Source: Betaproteobacteria bacterium
GTDB lineage: Bacteria > Bacillota > UBA5301 > DYFA01
Direction of reading: 5' to 3'
NCBI GenBank assembly: GCA_050260635.1
Contig: JBLNCL010000003.1
Location: forward strand, 75,976 to 139,975
Length of the DNA: 64,000 bases
The first letter of the stretch is position 1, and every line of letters starts with the position of its first letter. A program made the position numbers and the translations under genes. Shown piece after piece: positions 56,161 through 64,000 of this stretch. Under the pieces are notes generated by a model. The model was not told the origin of the DNA. It made no database searches and saw nothing but the letters and a program-made list of their open reading frames with translations.

Positions 56161-57129
56161 ATGCCGATGAAGTCGATCGGACAGGTTCGACGGGCTCTGC
56201 CTCAAGAATTCCTGGACCGCCTGGGCGAGTTCTTCCCGCCCCCGGTCCAGGAGGAAATCCTCGCTGGTTTCGGGGCGGAGCGCCCGACCACCCTCCGGGC
56301 CAACACCCTAAGAACCGACGTCCGGGCATTGATGCGAGAACTTGCGGCCGGGGGAGTCAAGTTCGAGCGAGTCCTCTGGTACCCCGAGGCGCTCATCATC
56401 AAGAACCGGCGGGAGAAGGATCTCGGGTCGCTTCCGGCCTACCGTGAGGGCCGCCTCTACCTGCAGAGCCTCTCAAGTATGGTGCCGGTGCTCGTCCTCG
56501 GACCCCTGCCCGGGGAGCGGGTTCTGGACGTGGCTGCGGCGCCGGGCAGCAAGACTACCCAGCTCGCCATGTTGATGCAGGATTACGGGTACATCCTGGC
56601 CAACGACTCCAACCCTGTCCGTCTGGAGCGCCTCAAGTACAACCTGCGCCTCCAGGGCGTCACGATTGCGGAAGCGGTTCTCTCCGACGGCCGTTCGCTC
56701 GGCCGGTGCCATCCGGAGGCTTTCGACCGGGTCCTCCTGGACGCTCCTTGCAGTGGCGAAGGCCTCTTTTCCGCGTCTGACCCTGCCACTTTCCGCCACT
56801 GGTCTCCAGCCCGCATCCGGAAGTTTGCCTCGCTCCAGCGCGCCCTCTTCACGAGCGCTTTCGAGACCCTGCGCCCCGGCGGGGTGCTGGTCTACTCCAC
56901 CTGCACCCTGGCCCCGGAGGAGGACGAACTCCTCGTGGACTGGGCCCTTTCGGCCTTCGCGGGCCGCCTGAAGACAGAACCACCTCCGCTGCGGGTCCCA
57001 GGGGCTGTTCCCGCGCTCACCCGGTTCGACGGCAGGGACCTGACCCCGGGCGTCGTCCAGGCCTTTCGCTTGCTCCCGAGCCACCTGTTCGAAGGCTTCT
57101 TCGTTTGCCGCTTCGTCAAGACGCGTTGA
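56161..57129 (+). CDS. RsmB/RsmF/NOP2 RNA m5C methyltransferase
   Basis: LDVAAAPGSKT, DAPCSGEG and YSTCT motifs. Confidence 0.9.
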   Translation: MPMKSIGQVRRALPQEFLDRLGEFFPPPVQEEILAGFGAERPTTLRANTLRTDVRALMRELAAGGVKFERVLWYPEALIIKNRREKDLGSLPAYREGRLYLQSLSSMVPVLVLGPLPGERVLDVAAAPGSKTTQLAMLMQDYGYILANDSNPVRLERLKYNLRLQGVTIAEAVLSDGRSLGRCHPEAFDRVLLDAPCSGEGLFSASDPATFRHWSPARIRKFASLQRALFTSAFETLRPGGVLVYSTCTLAPEEDELLVDWALSAFAGRLKTEPPPLRVPGAVPALTRFDGRDLTPGVVQAFRLLPSHLFEGFFVCRFVKTR

Positions 57130-57853
57130 AGGTACCCGATACCCCGCCCGGATGGCTCTGGTGCGACGAGGCGCCCATGCTGCCGAGGAGACCGTCGATG
57201 GCCAAGAGCCACGCCAAGCACGCCTCGACATAAAGGCAGGTCAATCCCGCCTTGTGGAGAGCGGGGTAGTTTTCGGCTTTGCTGAACAGCACCATTGCGA
57301 AACCGGCGAGCACCGCTACGAACTGCAGCCGGGAGATGGTGTGGGGCCGGAAATTGGCGGCGCCCATCACCAGGGCCAACAGGCGGGTTTTGGTGTCCTT
57401 GAACCTGAGGCGTGAGACCTTGATCCGGTCGGTGATGGTCACCAGAATTTGAGGCATGACCATCATGAGTATTATGCTGGTCTCAAGCAAGCCGTTGATT
57501 AGGGCCAGGATACCCATCCAGCCGCCGAGCAGCCAGTCGGAAAAGTGGTCCAGGTAGGCCCCGGTGCGGGAAGTCTGCTTCCTGGAACGGGCCAGCATGC
57601 CATCGATCGTGTCGGTGAGGGCAGCAGCGATGAGAACGTTGCTTTGCGCTGTGAGCGGTTGGCCGGTCAGGAACAGCGTTATCGCTACGCCCACCAAAAC
57701 TATCCTGAGCGACGTGATGTGGTTGGGGTGGACCCAACGGGGTATGACGGCTGCCACGACGCGACCGAGGGTTCGATCCCTCAGGTCCTCTTCCAGCGAG
57801 GTCAACCGTTCCCAGATTTGAGGGCGAACGCTCCTTCCGGCCAAGCAGAACAC
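57116..57853 (-). CDS. CDP-alcohol phosphatidyltransferase
   Basis: PNHITSLR and DTIDGMLAR......TGAYLDHFSD motif; start uncertain. Confidence 0.85.
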   Translation of the reverse strand: MFCLAGRSVRPQIWERLTSLEEDLRDRTLGRVVAAVIPRWVHPNHITSLRIVLVGVAITLFLTGQPLTAQSNVLIAAALTDTIDGMLARSRKQTSRTGAYLDHFSDWLLGGWMGILALINGLLETSIILMMVMPQILVTITDRIKVSRLRFKDTKTRLLALVMGAANFRPHTISRLQFVAVLAGFAMVLFSKAENYPALHKAGLTCLYVEACLAWLLAIDGLLGSMGASSHQSHPGGVSGTFNAS

Positions 57854-57959
57854 CCCGCGTCGAAGCCCTAGGTCATTCCCCTGGATTCTTCACCTTCCAC
57901 CTGGATCCTCCCTTCCTTTTAGGCAGTGAACGTTGACCGCCCGCCCGTGGCGGACCCAC

Positions 57960-57990
57960 AAGAAAAGGGCCACAGCCTCTGTGACCCCTT
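57960..57990 (-). terminator. Displaced native rnpB terminator
   Basis: GGGTCACAG-AGG-CTGTGGCCC-TTTTCTT immediately after the duplicated rnpB 3' end. Confidence 0.75.
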
Positions 57991-57999
57991 CTGTGAAAA

Positions 58000-58028
58000 T
58001 GAGCAACCAGGTCTGTAAGCCGAGTTCT
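58000..58028 (+). repeat. att direct repeat, left copy (duplicated rnpB 3' end)
   Basis: TGAGCAACCAGGTCTGTAAGCCGAGTTCT, identical to 63877-63905; extends to 34 bp with one mismatch. Confidence 0.92.
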
Positions 58029-58111
58029 CCACCCGGGGTGGCAGAAGGTCTAAATGCCCATGCAGAGCGGGTTTTCAGACCCCCTACGCATATAAGGGGT
58101 GTTATAGACCT

Positions 58112-59011
58112 ATGCAGATCGAGAAGGTCGTCGCCGAATTCCTCTTCCACCTCAAGGTCGAGAAGGCCGCCTCTCCCCTCACCCTCAAAGCCTACCGGGG
58201 AGACCTCAAGCACCTCGTGAGCCTCTGCCAAACCGAAGGCCTGACCTCCATCGACCAGGTGACCACCGCCCACCTCCGCCGCCTCCTGATGCAGCGTCAA
58301 GCAACGCACGCCTACGCCCCGAACACGGTCGGGCGGTTCGTCAACGCCTATCGCTCGTTTTTCCGGTTCTGCCTGGAGCAGGAGTACATCACAAAGAACC
58401 CGATGCTGCCCATCAAGCCGCCCAAACGCACGACGCCCGTTCCCGTCTACATGACTCCAGCCGAAGTCAAGCGGCTCTTGACCGCCGCCGAACGGAAGAA
58501 GGGCCGGGGTTGGATGCGTGACCGCACAGCCATCGAGCTTCTCCTCATGACCGGCGTCCGCCGCAGCGAACTCATCTCCCTTAACTGGGACGATGTGGAC
58601 TTCGGTGCCGGTACGATCACCGTCCGCAAAGCCAAAGGGCGCAAGCAGAGGGTCATCCCGATGCACCCGGTGCTCCGGGAACATCTCTGGGAGTATCTCC
58701 AGACCCGCCTGCCGCTCGGTGAAGAACGAGCCATCGTCGTGGGACTCGAAGGCCACCGGATCGAAACCAACGCTCTCAACCGCCTCTTCCGGCGCAACCT
58801 GCGCCTCGCCGGCCTGGAAGGGAAAGGGTTGACTCTCCACAAGTGCCGCCATACCTTCGCCACGCTGGTGCTCAATTCGGGAACCCCGGTCAACCTCTTC
58901 CAACTGCAAGAGCTCCTCGGACACGCCGACCCGAAATCCACTTCCGTCTACGCCCATGTCGATACCCGTCAACTCGGCGACCTCGTGGCCGCCGTCCGAT
59001 TCGCCGGTTGA
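58112..59011 (+). CDS. Tyrosine recombinase 1 (XerC/D-like)
   Basis: SAM-like N-domain, GVRRSE (R), KGRKQR (K), HKCRH, LGH and SVY. Confidence 0.93.
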   Translation: MQIEKVVAEFLFHLKVEKAASPLTLKAYRGDLKHLVSLCQTEGLTSIDQVTTAHLRRLLMQRQATHAYAPNTVGRFVNAYRSFFRFCLEQEYITKNPMLPIKPPKRTTPVPVYMTPAEVKRLLTAAERKKGRGWMRDRTAIELLLMTGVRRSELISLNWDDVDFGAGTITVRKAKGRKQRVIPMHPVLREHLWEYLQTRLPLGEERAIVVGLEGHRIETNALNRLFRRNLRLAGLEGKGLTLHKCRHTFATLVLNSGTPVNLFQLQELLGHADPKSTSVYAHVDTRQLGDLVAAVRFAG

Positions 59012-59085
59012 CCCCTTCGGGGTGCGTCCTTCGTCCGCCGGGGGATGCGCAGCGCCGGCATCCCCCGTACCCCCTCGGCTATCTC

Positions 59086-59126
59086 CGACGCAAACCCGGC
59101 CCACTTCGGGGTCGGTTTTGTCGTCG
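59086..59126. terminator. Long hairpin / probable terminator after recombinase 1
   Basis: CGACGCAAACCCGGCCC-ACTTCG-GGGTCGGTTTTGTCGTCG. Confidence 0.5.
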
Positions 59127-59262
59127 TCGAGGGGAAAGCATGTTGGGCGGTGTCACCTGCTCACCCGGTTTCCTGGCTGTTGTCGGCGTCCAAGGAGGGC
59201 GGTGCATCAATTTTGCGCACAATGGGCCAGAGCCACTACCTCACCTCGTCTACCCGGGCAGG

Positions 59263-60018
59263 CTACGCCTCCATCGCCTGAATGCCTCTCGGAGTTATCT
59301 TGCAGACCCCATCCCGGTACTCGATAAGCCTCTCTTTGTGCAGGTGGCGCAGTATCTTCCTGAAGCGGGTGGTGTTGCCGTACTCGGTCCATGCCTGCAA
59401 GTCTTTCTCCGAGACCGGGCCGCTTTCGTGATACAGCAGTACGAGAATCTGCTTTCGAGTCGGCATTTTCGGGTCTAGGACCCGCCGAACGTCCCCGTCC
59501 TCGAAAACGAGGGGGAGGCGTCGCTGGACTAACGCATCTACTGTCGCTTGGCATTCGTCCGGCGGTAATGTCGATGTCTGACGGATAAGTTCCGCCATCA
59601 CCCAGTCAACGGCAGACATGATGTATGTGCTGTCCATTACGTTGGGCTGGACCTGGCCGACATGCCCGACTCCACGATTGTTACGAAGGTTATAGATCGA
59701 ACGTAGCACTCTCGGGATGTGAAGCCGGAAGGCTTCGTCTCCGGTCCCTTGCTCGTAGTGCTGCATGGCCCCGTCGTTGAGTGGGGGCAGCTTCTGACTA
59801 GTCGAGACGTACTTCTTGTGCAGTTCAAACTCCAAAATCCGACGCACTGCCTCCACGAAGAAGCCGCCTTCCAGTTCGGACGGCTTAAACTTGCGGAGGT
59901 AATAGTTGCGCTTCAACTCCTCGTAACTGCGCACCGTCTCCCTAACGATGTCATCGGGGTAGCCACGCCCCGTGAGTATCGCCTCGATCTTGCTTTGCAC
60001 CTCATCAACTCCCGGCAA
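59263..60018 (-). CDS. Putative HEPN-like protein with C-terminal winged helix
   Basis: Helical domain with FVEAVRRILE and YNLRNNRGVGH (R-x6-H); C-terminal FRKILRHLHKERLIEY..CKITPRG. Confidence 0.65.
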   Translation of the reverse strand: MPGVDEVQSKIEAILTGRGYPDDIVRETVRSYEELKRNYYLRKFKPSELEGGFFVEAVRRILEFELHKKYVSTSQKLPPLNDGAMQHYEQGTGDEAFRLHIPRVLRSIYNLRNNRGVGHVGQVQPNVMDSTYIMSAVDWVMAELIRQTSTLPPDECQATVDALVQRRLPLVFEDGDVRRVLDPKMPTRKQILVLLYHESGPVSEKDLQAWTEYGNTTRFRKILRHLHKERLIEYRDGVCKITPRGIQAMEA

Positions 60019-60613
60019 TCAGGGAGGCCAGCAACGTCTGTGCCCGTTCCTTCCCCGGCATCGTCAGCTTAACAGTGAAGTTCGGGCTACCCTGTTTACC
60101 CGTACTGAGGAACAGGTCAGTTCGTTTCTTCAGGTGGGCGGCGAAGTTGTTCCCGTCTAAGCATGCGTGGTCCTTGCAAAGTCGGCGTAGTTCGGCTGCC
60201 GCAACATCCGTTCTTCCGTAGAACTCACTTGCCAAGCAGTAGAGCAGGGAGAGGTTGACTTCTTTCTCCGCTTTGTTCTTGCCGGGAATCTTCTTAACGA
60301 TAATCGTAAACGTGTCCGCTTCCGTGTGGATTACCCGATTTACGCTCTCTTTCGGTGCTCCGAACACCGCCACATATTTGTCCTGCTCAGGCTCAGGTGC
60401 AGTGGGCGAGGCTACGGTTCCGATAGGGCCCGTTGAGGCAGCCGGGACAATAGGGGCCTCTACCTGAACATGCCTCACGAGACTCTTGACCTGCACATCG
60501 AAATACTCTCGAATCCACTTCAGGTTCTCGTTCACGAACGACTCGGTACCTTCGAATTCTACTAGGCCCTCCCGGAGATTGATGACGACTCTGGCTTCTG
60601 AAGCGGCTGCCAT
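60005..60613 (-). CDS. Hypothetical protein with C-terminal winged-helix-like domain
   Basis: ATG 60613 after GGGAGG; N-terminal VEFEGTESFV, Pro/Ala linker, C-terminal NFAAHLK...KLTMPGKERA. Confidence 0.65.
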   Translation of the reverse strand: MAAASEARVVINLREGLVEFEGTESFVNENLKWIREYFDVQVKSLVRHVQVEAPIVPAASTGPIGTVASPTAPEPEQDKYVAVFGAPKESVNRVIHTEADTFTIIVKKIPGKNKAEKEVNLSLLYCLASEFYGRTDVAAAELRRLCKDHACLDGNNFAAHLKKRTDLFLSTGKQGSPNFTVKLTMPGKERAQTLLASLIAGS

Positions 60614-61572
60614 AGTCACCCTCCCGTCCACCAGATTGTTATGATGTGAGAATTTCCCCACAAACAGGAGGACTTCCTGCGGGAAGGAAGACGAGAGCCT
60701 CTTGGCCCGGTTTCAACCGCTGGCCCACCAGGCGCTTTTCGGGTCGCCCGGCTTAGGCTTTCCACCACGTTGGCTCACCTTCCTCGCCACTGGGCAATTA
60801 TCTCCGAGTTTTGGATCTTTCGATGGACTCGTTCTAAACTGAAGTCGTTCTCGAAATCACGACAATCCGGAAAGGAGATTTGGCGATGCCAAGAAGACCA
60901 TGGAGACGTTGTCGCCACCCCGCTAGGGCGCACGGCGGGAGATGGGTTGAGGAGTGCGGCCCGACCCGGAGGCTAGCCACCTTCGGGCACGACAAACGGC
61001 GACGACTGGTTGCTGGGAGCCGACCAACCAGATCGTGGAGCTGAAGGCCGGGCCTCTTCACGGAGGGGGAAGATGAGCCACTAGACGGTCCGCTCGATGC
61101 CTGAACGGCACACCTCATGGTCAGCGGACCACCCGACGTGCTACCGTAGGCCCTTGGGCTGCGGTGCCGCAATGAAGCAGGAGACTGCAGAGCGGTGTAA
61201 CTGGCACGGGTTCAGCAACGTGAGGGCAGGCGGCACGAAACAGGCCCAGGCAAAAAAGCGGAGCGAGCAGACAAGAGCCGACATCGTCGGCTTGGCCGAA
61301 GGCCGATGCGACGATGCCGGAACGGCAACGGCCGCCGGGGCGGCGGACGTTGCCGAATGGGCGGACCGCCGCAGGCGGGACGACCCTTCGGAGACGAGAT
61401 GGCAAGCGGCCGGAAGGCCGCTGACGATAGCCCGCAATCGTTCACCCCAACGGCACGGCGCAGCCGGGACGCTTGGGGTGAACGGCGGGAATAGATTTGC
61501 CCTCCGCTAGGAGCGCCCCTTCGCCGGCCTCCTTGGCCGGGAAGGGGCAAAGCGCCGCAAGGAGGTGAGGTT

Positions 61573-62541
61573 ATGTCTAAGCTCGGGAGCCCCGTGCACC
61601 AGGTCAAAGAGGCTTTCCGCTCGGTCACCAAGGAAGGCGTCTCCAAACACGCCGAGAAGGCGAAGCACAATGGTCAATCGCCGTACATTCACGCCTGGCG
61701 AACCGCCAAGAACTATACCGAAATCGGCTGCGCCTTCGTCAAGTTCGCCGGCGTGCGGGACATTCGGACGCTGACGCCAGAGCATGGCGCTGCCTACCTA
61801 AGACACCTCCAAGAGCACGGGGGCAAGGGCGGCCAGCCGGGGTCAGCCTGGACGGTAAAGCAGGCCGCATCGGCGTTGCACAAGCTCGAGCTTGGCATCG
61901 AGGCCCGGTACGGCGTCAAAGTCTCCCTTCTTCCGGCAGATTGGGTCGGCCCGGTTCGGCACGAAGAAGACAAAAAAGACATCCGGGCGCCGTACACAAG
62001 GGAGGAGATGGCAAAACTGCTGTCAGCGGTGTCCCAACGGAACCCCGAGATGGGCACCGTCTGCAAAGTCATGGCCGAAACCGGGCTGCGCATCTCCTCG
62101 GTCATTGGCCACAGAGACGGCATGAGCGGCGGCCGGGGGATTAGGGTCAAGGATCTGGACATCGAAGGGTGCCGGGTCCGAAACTACGGGAAAGGCGGCC
62201 ACCCGACGGGCTGGCTCCAGGTCTCGAAAGAGACGATGGCCGAGCTAAAAGCCTTAGCAAACGGCAAGGGACGGAATGAGCGGGTTTTCAACGTGAAGTA
62301 CGACCAAGTGCGCCACGAAGTGGTGAAAGTGGCCCGCCAGACTAAGGCTGAATACCGGGCACTTCACGGGTTCCGCTACTTTTTCGCCAACGCCCGCTAC
62401 CAGGAATACCGGCAGCAGGGCATGAGCGACCTGGAGGCCCGCAAGGCACTCGCTAAGGACCTTCAACATCACCGGATCAGCGTCACCCGGGTCTACGTTC
62501 CGGGCGTCGGGTGGGTCACCATCTCGGCGAGCGACGCCTAA
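61573..62541 (+). CDS. Tyrosine recombinase 2 (divergent)
   Basis: AAGGAGGTG RBS; TGLRISS, GKGG, HGFR and LQHHRISVTRVY. Confidence 0.85.
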   Translation: MSKLGSPVHQVKEAFRSVTKEGVSKHAEKAKHNGQSPYIHAWRTAKNYTEIGCAFVKFAGVRDIRTLTPEHGAAYLRHLQEHGGKGGQPGSAWTVKQAASALHKLELGIEARYGVKVSLLPADWVGPVRHEEDKKDIRAPYTREEMAKLLSAVSQRNPEMGTVCKVMAETGLRISSVIGHRDGMSGGRGIRVKDLDIEGCRVRNYGKGGHPTGWLQVSKETMAELKALANGKGRNERVFNVKYDQVRHEVVKVARQTKAEYRALHGFRYFFANARYQEYRQQGMSDLEARKALAKDLQHHRISVTRVYVPGVGWVTISASDA

Positions 62542-62596
62542 ACGCACGGCCGCAAGACGCAGGCTCACGCCAGATTTGGAGTTCCCCGCCCTCTTG

Positions 62597-62605
62597 TGTT
62601 ATAAT
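62597..62605 (+). promoter_or_regulatory. Extended -10 promoter upstream of recombinase 3
   Basis: TGTTATAAT. Confidence 0.45.
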
Positions 62606-62755
62606 GCCCGCAACAACGGCGACGACATGGCCGAAAGAATTTCGGTGGCGGAGGCCCTGGCCTCCTTTCTGTGGCTTTTCTTAGACTTCGGCTGACCTCG
62701 CTTCAACGCAACTTTAACCGGTCGTGTCTCCCAAACGAAGGGAGCACTGGCCGAG

Positions 62756-63895
62756 GTGAAGGTTCTCACTTGCCCCGAGTTCATCGAGGAGATTACCCTG
62801 GATAACCCACTGCTTGACTGCCTCACGGCCTACTACCAGCAACGGCGGGCGGAAAACGACTTCCGGGAATCAAGCTTCATCGCCTACCGGACTGACCTGA
62901 TGCACGTCGTGCGCTACCTGGAAGGCCAGAACCTGCCCCCCACCCTGCGCCATCTCACCCGGGAAAACGTCCGGCGGCTCGAGGCCCTTTGGGTGCAGCA
63001 AGGCCATGCCCGCACGACTATCGCCCGCCGTCTCAATTCCCTGCAGGCCATCGTTCGCTACTGCAGGGACTTCGTTCCCGAGTTTGTCGACCCGTTCGCC
63101 GGGCGCCGCATCGCCAGGGGAGACCGTCATAAGCGGCCGGACTGCCTCTCGGAGGCGGAATATGACCGGGTACTCGGACCCAGAGCCGACTTCGGCCGCA
63201 ACCCGCTCCGCAACCGGGCACTTCTCACTCTCATGTACTTCACCCTTTGCCGGCTGAGCGAAGCGGCAGCCCTGACCTGGGGTGACGTCGACTTTCGGCA
63301 GGACCAGATCCACTTCAAAGCCCCGACCAAAAACCACGACCCGAAGACCGTCCCGATGGCGCCAGAGTTGAAGGCCGTGCTGAGAGCGCTCCAGCGTTCC
63401 CTGCCTTCTCTCCCCCGGGCGGATGCTCCAGTCTTCGTCAGCGAGCAAGGCGTCCGGTTCACCGAGTCCGGGATCAAGAAGATGGTCAAGGACCACGGTA
63501 TCCGCAACGGCGTTCCCAGGCTCCACTCGCACTTGTTCCGCCACACGGGCGCCACCCGGCTCGCCTGCCAGGGCGTGCCCCTGCCGGTCGTCGCCAAGCT
63601 GGCCGGCCACCATGACCTTGGCACGACGATGAAATACTACATCCACGTCCCCGATCAAGCCAGCCGGGAGGCCGTCTCGCTGCTCGGCCAAATGAGCGGC
63701 CCCAAATTCGTCTGGATGAAGAAGGAAATCGACCCGAGCCGTCGAAGTCAGTCTCCAAATCATAGCGGAGGGCGAGTCTGGAGGCCTTCCGCTCCGGTTC
63801 AGGAACTCGGTAGAGGCCGTAAGGTTGCGAAAATCGAAGAGCGGGCGAGCAAAGTGCTTTCCCGCTCCGAAGAAAGTGAGCAACCAGGTCTGTAA
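62756..63895 (+). CDS. Tyrosine recombinase 3 (XerD-like); stop codon inside the att repeat
   Basis: SAM-like domain (TIARRLNSL), TLCRLSE, HLFRH and AGHHDLGTTMKYY; start uncertain. Confidence 0.9.
   Translation: MKVLTCPEFIEEITLDNPLLDCLTAYYQQRRAENDFRESSFIAYRTDLMHVVRYLEGQNLPPTLRHLTRENVRRLEALWVQQGHARTTIARRLNSLQAIVRYCRDFVPEFVDPFAGRRIARGDRHKRPDCLSEAEYDRVLGPRADFGRNPLRNRALLTLMYFTLCRLSEAAALTWGDVDFRQDQIHFKAPTKNHDPKTVPMAPELKAVLRALQRSLPSLPRADAPVFVSEQGVRFTESGIKKMVKDHGIRNGVPRLHSHLFRHTGATRLACQGVPLPVVAKLAGHHDLGTTMKYYIHVPDQASREAVSLLGQMSGPKFVWMKKEIDPSRRSQSPNHSGGRVWRPSAPVQELGRGRKVAKIEERASKVLSRSEESEQPGL
63832..63867 (-). terminator. Element-supplied terminator-like hairpin downstream of rnpB
   Basis: GAGCGGG-AAAGCACTTTGCTCG-CCCGCTC followed by TTCGATTTT. 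Confidence 0.55.
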
Positions 63896-63905
63896 GCCGA
63901 GTTCT
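63877..63905 (+). repeat. att direct repeat, right copy (within rnpB)
   Basis: Identical to 58000-58028. Confidence 0.92.
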
Positions 63906-64000
63906 GTCGTGTACGGTCATCTCTCTGGGACGCCAGTTGCCAGGCGCCTCAAGCGACCAACCCGGGAGAAAGGCGGGCCACCCTATCTCTCCCCTATTTG
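63877..64000 (-). ncRNA. rnpB: RNase P RNA (type A), 3' portion; continues beyond the window
   Basis: Minus strand reads CTCCCGGGTTGGTCGCTTGAGGCGCCTGGCAACTGGCGTCCCAGAGAGATGACCGTACACGACAGAACTCGGCTTACAGACC: P18 GCAA loop, CR-IV AGAGAGATGA, CR-V ACAGAACnCGGCTTA. Exact 3' end approximate. Confidence 0.9.

Follow-up and report, generated by a model that had tools for sequence, protein, structure and literature searches.

Can rnpB, the gene that encodes RNase P RNA, serve as the landing site of a mobile element? The question is raised by a 64,000-nucleotide (nt) stretch of a draft genome catalogued as Betaproteobacteria bacterium (GTDB lineage Bacteria; Bacillota; UBA5301; DYFA01; GenBank assembly GCA_050260635.1, contig JBLNCL010000003.1, positions 75,976 to 139,975 of the forward strand). 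In this stretch, which we call the window, two copies of a direct repeat lie 5,877 bp apart, one of them inside rnpB, and the original prediction, made from the letters alone, had read this as a compact element integrated into that gene. We conclude that site-specific integration into rnpB is very probably genuine, and that positions 58029-63905 would be a small integrative, non-conjugative element that entered by tyrosine-recombinase recombination. The source assembly (2,378,378 bp, 32 contigs) is referred to as G000 and sampled genomes by other G numbers; all of them are drafts.

The direct repeat is 34 nt long with one mismatch (57995-58028 and 63872-63905), and its perfect part, as predicted, is the 29 nt at 58000-58028 and 63877-63905. 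A search of the whole assembly for this 29-mer gave two occurrences and no more, also with as many as 5 mismatches tolerated. The predicted identity of the right flank was confirmed with the Rfam model of bacterial RNase P RNA, RF00010. Within the window, the model matched 63877-64000 on the minus strand with 86.9 bits (E 1.4e-25, model positions 229-367), a score below the 100-bit gathering score because the window end cuts rnpB; in the assembly, the whole gene (window-equivalent 63877-64224, minus strand) scored 314.6 bits over model positions 1-367, and the same search found rnpB to be single-copy. The placement of the right copy in rnpB therefore stood, with the correction that the gene lies on the minus strand and that only 124 nt of it fall inside the window. 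The right copy makes up the last 29 nt of the working gene, approximately the last 29 positions of the RF00010 model. It holds the conserved ...GAACUCGGCUUA... stretch and the 3' strand complementary to the 5' end of RNase P RNA, parts that we take, from established knowledge of this RNA, to be those named CR-V, P4 and P1.

The target gene is whole after the insertion: rnpB is full length, and the strand at its 5' terminus is complementary to that at its 3' terminus. An orphaned tail of rnpB forms the left copy, and directly next to it, in the rnpB sense, lies a strong terminator at ~57957-57999 (-31.8 kcal/mol, z -3.44, with 0 of 200 shuffles equally stable), a hairpin and U-run that a simple terminator scan did not have among its listed sites. 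Since this terminator is only 40% identical to the corresponding flank of G002, a genome of the same family but another genus, it is host DNA outside the element. Behind the working rnpB there is now an element-borne hairpin (63800-63876; -24.7 kcal/mol, z -2.63, 2 of 200 shuffles equally stable). All parts of the predicted 3'-end-restoring footprint are present: rnpB is intact, its former tail has been displaced, the native terminator is orphaned, and the element has supplied another. A single contig of 165,701 bp contains both repeat junctions, flanked by host genes at either side, and no tRNA or transfer-messenger RNA (tmRNA) gene was found in the 64-kb window.

Between the repeats, the 5,877 bp contain five convincing open reading frames (ORFs), namely three intact tyrosine recombinases, IntA, IntB and IntC, and a two-gene cargo. 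In an alignment, the R-K-H-R-H-Y catalytic residues are kept in all three recombinases. The IntA, IntB and IntC modules were also found in the rnpB gene of G002. The rnpB-proximal contig of G002 starts at window-equivalent 61304 and runs through IntB, IntC, the repeat and rnpB into host genes, and on a 2.9-kb contig IntA is accompanied by a displaced rnpB tail of 26 nt, by another strong terminator (-38.5 kcal/mol) and by a flank of unrelated sequence. Element segments of G000 and G002 are 85-98% identical, with 97-98% in the spacers by the attachment (att) copy and after IntA, whereas the host flanks align at 40% left of the left repeat and 59-65% beyond rnpB, and flanking host genes are 68-75% identical by BLAST. 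The fall in identity coincides exactly with the repeats, and G002 differs from G000 in its distal flank and its native terminator; the 5' strands of the two rnpB genes are identical. Beyond 59132, G002 has a 233-amino-acid (aa) protein, by its sequence apparently a signal-peptide protein, in place of the two G000 cargo genes. The G000 segment is thus mobile, as the original prediction had proposed, and its mobility extends between genera.

Sequences like the element's conserved modules were also seen in metagenomes. In four runs, which come from three studies of a biogas fermenter and of soils, Logan contigs are 85-99% like the IntA module and the module at 60890-63830; the left host flank is scarcely covered in them, and one contig has a third, unrelated flank from 57995. 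The metagenome shares are small (0.06-0.11), and these data are contigs only, in which uncovered parts carry no information.

We next asked which of the recombinases is tied to rnpB in other genomes. Our phylum sample comprised 401 genomes from a larger group, and several islands in it are split over contigs. In a search with IntA, the best matches formed a group of their own (E<=1e-46, 37-42% identity), which comprises nine genomes (G025, G106, G021, G127, G349, G163 and G362, together with G000 and G002). A displaced rnpB tail lies beside the integrase in eight of these nine, and the core motif was found within 1.5 kb of 0 of the 21 next-best recombinase loci (31-36% identity), which are presumably ordinary Xer-type genes. 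In all eight positive cases, the integrase is distal to rnpB, on the opposite strand and reading into the island, as IntA is. The identity block starts at the same rnpB nucleotide in five of the eight; it begins 1 base earlier in G025, 5 bases later in G163 and far earlier in G349. A dedicated integrase lineage is tied to rnpB, and the expectation of a family that uses an rnpB motif as its chromosomal site, with recombinase homologues adjacent to rnpB, was borne out.

In a quick maximum-likelihood tree, the integrases of G000, G002, G362, G127 and G025 were grouped with a support of 98 in the approximate likelihood-ratio test (SH-aLRT). G025 had been placed in the IntA group before its repeat was known, and the repeat was then found: the contig that carries rnpB has, 48,251 bp downstream of it, a perfect 29-nt rnpB tail, with the integrase 140 bp away. 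The G025 island encodes type I restriction-modification, UvrD, AAA_13, HerA-like, DUF4062 and Sacsin/NOV_C proteins and a large serine recombinase, and an ImmA/IrrE-HTH pair adjoins the integrase. In G127, the two copies of a 25-nt repeat lie on different contigs, and 135 bp separate the displaced tail from a gene that resembles IntA (41% identity); the island extends past 15 kb and includes a SNF2 helicase with NOV_C and two DUF1156 proteins. The tail of G106 (25 nt, 3 mismatches) lies ~7.3 kb from rnpB on the same contig, that of G163 is at least 27 nt long, its rnpB contig ending inside the repeat, and G349 has an rnpB fragment of at least 91 nt beside the integrase. Islands with both ends on one contig range from 5.9 to 48 kb, the larger ones carrying defence-type genes, so that the description "compact" holds for the G000 member only: the island of one relative measures 48 kb, and that of another is longer than 15 kb.

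Several further observations concern these loci. At G349:C11:156224-157335 (L219/L245), the IntA-type integrase abuts a ~90-270-nt rnpB 3' fragment scoring 44.9 bits. A full-length rnpB was not found in this genome, which is 99% complete, among the candidates scored (89 of 109); the true gene may be unassembled, divergent or outside the candidates scored. Judged by eye, the terminator hairpins behind rnpB look alike in G025 (L010/L211), G127 (L202) and G106 (L243), where they share an AT-rich palindrome around GAATATTTAT; this likeness suggests a shared ancestral attachment-site region. In G021, a 438-aa tyrosine recombinase lies 470 bp downstream of rnpB (C45:6000-13709, L196) and groups weakly with IntB (SH-aLRT 80); it is followed by a Cas6-like gene, an ABC transporter, a MerR/TipA regulator and, at the contig end, IS3. 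This contig, C45, and contig C58, which holds the IntA-type gene of G021, may be parts of one split rnpB island.

Informative for the position of the crossover was G362, in which the repeat is 27 nt long with 1 mismatch and its copies lie 6,838 bp apart. Clean empty sites for this member were found in three relatives from other genera of its family, in which rnpB is followed by uppS within ~0.5-0.8 kb; in G362, uppS lies beyond the far end of the island, and one of the three, G402, also has the same small Gly/Tyr-rich ORF. An empty site of the kind that the original prediction proposed to look for in related genomes was therefore found for this member of the family, and none was found for the G000 element. 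At the mismatch in G362, the base of the element stands in the gene-proximal copy and that of the host in the distal one. The crossover can accordingly be assigned to the repeat's first 17 nt, its conserved core, and the base brought by the element is still able to make a G-U pair with the rnpB 5' strand. Besides its full-length rnpB, G362 has a second, weak RF00010 match (C3:132128-132467, L123; 85 bits, below the cut-off).

We also took a census of duplicated rnpB tails using the motif AGAANNCGGCTTAYRG. In the home phylum, it matched 231 of 401 genomes, 19 of them at least twice, and the true cases among these were G000, G002, G362 and G127. It overlooked G025, G163, G106 and G349, in which the tails deviate from the motif. 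The double match of G089 came from two overlapping contig ends; those of G302, G072, G134, G318, G358, G391, G200, G276 and G334 were chance matches by their listings or loci, and those of G032, G105, G292, G317 and G376 were chance matches by the listing alone (different letters, opposite strands or more than 180 kb apart). In a Bacteroidota sample of 401 genomes, there was no true case among those followed, with a motif that had also missed the four home-phylum cases: G806 had overlapping contig ends, and the matches in G720, G741 and G776 had different letters on different contigs. A scan of IMG/VR gave 63 loci, six with a whole rnpB and one with a 3' piece, which we treat as leads only. 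One of these loci (L175) has a 19-nt rnpB-core match 287 bp upstream of an integrase gene and no other part of rnpB, and another (L186) has a 50-nt rnpB 3' piece with a tRNA gene directly next to it; phage attachment sites or relics are possible explanations for both.

Observed directly are a repeat, a whole gene, a displaced tail and two terminators at rnpB; the events that produced them can be proposed as follows. Conservative recombination would join an att site on the element with the last 26-29 nt of the chromosomal rnpB. The element's site would carry a copy of the rnpB tail, that is, the core stretch and the 3' strand of the terminal helix, together with a terminator of its own. Because the element brings both tail and terminator, rnpB stays whole after insertion and ends on element DNA, and the host's original tail and terminator would be left orphaned at the far end. 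In the G000 element, the crossover probably falls in the conserved core part of the repeat. As the element supplies the core and terminal-helix strands, its tolerance should be limited to hosts whose gene has a 5' part that pairs with them. In a circular form, the coordinates would place IntB, IntC, att and IntA in this order on one strand. IntA would be the enzyme that recognizes rnpB, since its relatives hold the same position beside displaced tails, and by this association it is most likely the rnpB-specific integrase.

A number of points weigh against this account. IntC is immediately adjacent to the working rnpB and might just as well be the integrase. Neither a 5,877-bp circle nor another excision product was detected in the Logan contigs of the four runs. 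In one run (X3), a single back-joining contig of depth 2.5 lacks a clean junction: window positions 63781-63810 are followed by 17 other letters and then by ~38 nt resembling the native terminator (57957-57994). We rejected this joint as a circle junction for that reason; some variants with a terminator like the native one of G000 may exist. No empty site was seen for the G000 element, because the only genome of the same genus, G001, has no assembled rnpB. We rejected G001 as an empty site, as it has neither rnpB nor the motif and its synteny differs after the RsmF gene; one of its contigs (C67:1-641, L072) ends in a transposase-like ORF soon after a glutamine synthetase gene. No excisionase-like, relaxase, replication or capsid gene was recognized that would account for excision control or cell-to-cell transfer. 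On the side of the family, the IntA-type gene of G021 (C58) has no recognizable rnpB tail in the 234 bp up to the contig end, and several members are decayed: the G127 integrase is a pseudogene with a stop codon and a lost C-terminus, and the G362 island encloses IS3 and IS21 besides a tyrosine recombinase and a glyoxalase-like gene. The tree, finally, came from a quick search with 97 recombinases (98 rows, one dropped as too short).

The alternative that survives best is that the G000 element is a composite of an IntA-type rnpB element and a second module, made up of a structured region, IntB and IntC, which would be acquired cargo or the remnant of a tandem element that lost its middle att copy; IntB and IntC would then be unneeded for integration into rnpB. 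We consider this possible but doubtful. It would explain that IntB and IntC occur only in the G000/G002 element and have no relatives in other IntA-group islands, that no recombinase was seen in the proximal 15 kb of the G127 island, that the distant relatives of IntB are single recombinases on small non-mobilizable plasmids (9 records, 21-28% identity) and that the cargo sits between the two modules. Against it, the assembly holds no third att copy with 5 mismatches tolerated, in G002 and the metagenome contigs the two modules are found jointly and with unchanged ends, and all three recombinase genes show purifying selection. In addition, the IntB-grouping recombinase beside rnpB in G021 indicates that a proximal recombinase may recur in such islands.

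Far less probable is an old, immobile insertion that was inherited vertically, with a fossil repeat and with genes that are in decay or have been domesticated. The missing circle and empty site of the G000 element and the decay of some family members would fit such a history; an element 85-98% identical across two genera whose flanking genes are 40-73% identical does not, nor do an identity that breaks exactly at the repeats, differing distal flanks, ratios of nonsynonymous to synonymous substitution rates (dN/dS) of 0.08-0.25, exchanged cargo and a third flank in a metagenome contig. The equal divergence of element and hosts, with an element phylogeny mirroring theirs, that vertical inheritance implies is already contradicted by G000 and G002. 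That a free plasmid or phage sharing 29 nt with rnpB was misjoined in assembly or binning, a danger the original prediction had itself named, is scarcely credible, for although G000 is a 32-contig draft and short repeats can mislead assemblers, both junctions lie inside one long contig between host genes, the same two junction types were assembled independently in G002, and equivalent junctions lie inside single contigs in G025, G106 and G362.

Having weighed these alternatives, we return to the element as a product of integration into rnpB and describe its parts, the coordinates of which are collected in Table 1.

Table 1. Features of the rnpB-integrated element and its borders (window positions)
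Feature	Position	Strand	Basis or remark
Orphaned native rnpB terminator, host side	57957..57999	-	Hairpin and U-run
Displaced native rnpB 3' end, distal att copy	58000..58028	-	Perfect 29-nt copy of 63877-63905
Spacer between att copy and IntA	58029..58111		97.6% identical to G002 over 83 columns, versus 92.6% for IntA
IntA, 299-aa tyrosine recombinase	58112..59011	+	Phage_integrase 1.4e-37; N-terminal SAM-like domain
Terminator-like hairpin closing the IntA module	59096..59125	+	Terminator scan; similarity to G002 ends at 59132
Cargo gene 1, 251 aa, C-terminal winged helix	59263..60018	-	HTH_27, weak (7.9e-4)
Cargo gene 2, 218 aa, no family	60005..60661	-	Atlas: unnamed clusters only
Highly structured non-coding stretch; candidate RNA or long leader	60850..61572	+	Minimum free energy versus shuffles
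IntB, 322-aa divergent tyrosine recombinase	61573..62541	+	XerA_Arch 6.9e-10 (NCBIfam); phrog_1 1.3e-10
IntB-IntC spacer	62542..62755	+	92.5% identical to G002, gapless
IntC, 379-aa tyrosine recombinase	62756..63895	+	Phage_integrase 1.1e-28
Element-borne hairpin and U-rich tail, now behind rnpB	63800..63876	-	Folding versus shuffles
Element-supplied 3' end of working rnpB, proximal att copy	63877..63905	-	Repeat and RF00010
rnpB, RNase P RNA class A	63877..64000, on to window-equivalent 64224	-	RF00010, 314.6 bits

The element has a GC content of 60.9%, compared with 64.8% for the genome. IntA starts 83 bp from the distal att copy and reads inward, and the strongly conserved spacer between them is a candidate recombinase-binding arm. 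IntB has only a weak SAM-like domain in Pfam. The final codons and stop of IntC lie inside the proximal att repeat, so that the gene abuts the working rnpB and is transcribed against it. Between G000 and G002, dN/dS is 0.08 for IntA, 0.10 for IntB and 0.25 for IntC, and judging from these substitutions all three recombinases are under purifying selection.

Cargo gene 1 belongs, according to the Atlas, to widespread unnamed clusters of ~255-aa hypothetical proteins (feature score 0.97, structural TM 0.87) and is absent from the G002 copy of the element. Its N-terminal part is possibly HEPN/Ymh-like, a weak lead (Atlas Hypoth_Ymh score 0.78) that presumes Hypoth_Ymh to be a HEPN-like family. Cargo gene 2 had no match in Pfam, NCBIfam, PADLOC or PHROGs. 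For the five ORFs, no capsid, terminase, relaxase, coupling-protein, replication or excisionase family was recognized in Pfam, NCBIfam or PHROGs, and the DNA of the whole element had no match in 50,697 phage or 72,556 plasmid records.

In the spacer between IntB and IntC, we noted by eye an extended -10-like TGTTATAAT at 62597-62605; a promoter scan listed none in this spacer. The spacer also holds a 22-codon hydrophobic ORF from 62627 and a hairpin with a T-run at 62650-62665, and from its sequence 62597-62695 looks like a leader or attenuator for IntC. Outside the element, a CDP-alcohol phosphatidyltransferase gene (57116-57853, minus strand) lies between RsmF and the displaced rnpB tail. 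Neither G001 nor G002 has a gene closely corresponding to it (best E 1e-5), and synteny with both genomes stops at RsmF.

The stretch upstream of IntB (60850-61572) stood out by its folding. Its minimum free energy z-scores are -11.5 on the plus and -6.3 on the minus strand (20 shuffles each), it has no credible ORF, and no Rfam family matched it even at E<=10. Over the 269 nt that G002 has in common with it, all 81 predicted pairs are kept, with three G-U-type and two double changes; of the paired columns, 7 of 162 carry a substitution, and of the unpaired columns 22 of 106 (Fisher 3e-5), counted on a stem structure predicted from the same two-row alignment. Covariation was not significant by shuffling (98 of 500) with these two sequences. 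Because the structure came from the same rows and covariation was not significant, we regard this stretch as a lead and not a finding; it could represent a long leader or a structured RNA that has not been described. One could go further and imagine the G000/G002 element as a minimal three-recombinase episome built around an undescribed RNA of ~0.3-0.7 kb that governs or primes the free circle, with the recombinases aligned on one strand across att and the IntA lineage giving a near-universal landing site limited only by tail pairing, a picture that we think unlikely to hold in full.

Outside the G000/G002 element, IntA has relatives, but IntB and IntC have no close ones. The 90%-identity protein clusters of IntA and IntB have 3 and 4 members, respectively. 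Among 5.8 billion proteins, IntB had nothing beyond its own 90% cluster and one 31% relative, and IntC had no close relative, the best match being 32% identical. In annotated collections, distant relatives of IntB are found not only in the nine plasmid records mentioned above but also in three Thermus phages. IntC is 89% identical in amino acids in G002 and at most 38% elsewhere across the 401 phylum genomes, and at E<=1e-20 it is absent from the other 8 genomes of the class; searches for it returned 5 loci at 22-29% in metagenome contigs and 4 loci at 26-31% in genome contigs. In an IMG/VR protein search, IntB had no match and IntA two loci (29-32%).

The strategy itself is a known one, reportedly described by Williams in 2002 for 3'-end integration of the tRNA/tmRNA type. 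Like tRNA/tmRNA islands of the Islander/TIGER class, the rnpB islands combine a tyrosine integrase with a direct repeat that equals the 3' end of a stable RNA gene; the gene is rebuilt by element DNA, the native tail lies at the far end, and defence or accessory cargo is frequent. They differ in that the target is rnpB, a catalytic RNA, and that the repeat comprises part of the ribozyme core and the strand of a helix that pairs with the 5' end. In full-text literature, we found no report of rnpB as an attachment site, in agreement with the prediction that this target is rarely described; a prior mention, for example in supplementary site tables, is possible. The largest resource of genomic islands, in its passages on insertion sites, sorts these only as tRNA/tmRNA (33.8%), coding sequence or intergenic (PMC12424338), and by such classes rnpB islands would be filed as intergenic and are probably present but unrecognized. 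The closest parallel is the temperate Enterococcus phage phiEf11, which integrates into ffs, the 4.5S RNA gene, with a 27-nt core (PMC12540744, 2025); where that paper treats its target, ffs is called novel, and tRNA/tmRNA and csRNA are the only RNA targets named as known. A non-tRNA stable RNA gene is thus the chromosomal site in both cases, and the core of 27 nt compares with 26-29 nt here, but the rnpB residents are non-phage islands of 5.9-48 kb.

Several tyrosine recombinases per element are known from RIT, GInt, SE and Tn554 (PMC10214605, PMC5385486, in the portions on gene content), and the small G000 element has three. RIT elements are described there as having three adjacent co-oriented recombinases and, at their termini, inverted repeats of 34 bp (PMC10214605). 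As in RIT, all three recombinases keep the catalytic tyrosine; unlike in RIT, they are co-oriented but non-adjacent, IntA lying 2.5 kb from IntB with two opposite-strand cargo genes between. Among 25 of the 26 inverted-repeat pairs listed, none joins both element ends, which are direct repeats. GInt and SE are characterized, in the same portions, by a four-gene operon at one end that includes a non-catalytic recombinase-fold protein and a small accessory protein; by contrast, we recognized no GinD/Srap/TnpC-like fourth gene and no catalytically deficient recombinase, and the genes lie at both ends. The element also differs from prophages and from integrative conjugative or mobilizable elements, as no capsid/terminase or relaxase/coupling-protein family was recognized. 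What appears new, from these sequence comparisons, is rnpB as a target, a lineage of integrases dedicated to it and, within the family, the miniature member with three recombinases and a structured region.

Defence islands sit at integration hotspots. The larger rnpB islands resemble them in carrying type I restriction-modification, SNF2/DUF1156, UvrD, AAA_13, HerA-like and NOV_C genes, but here the hotspot is the RNase P RNA gene. RNase P RNA is universal and generally essential, and its core sequence hardly changes across bacteria. As a landing site, the rnpB core adds a target class to tRNA, tmRNA and, since 2025, ffs. An essential gene can be used safely in this way, as the element brings a replacement tail and terminator, and a testable rule of host range would follow, namely that the tail of the element must pair with the rnpB 5' strand of its host. 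Integrases with so conserved a natural landing site may also be of interest for genome engineering.

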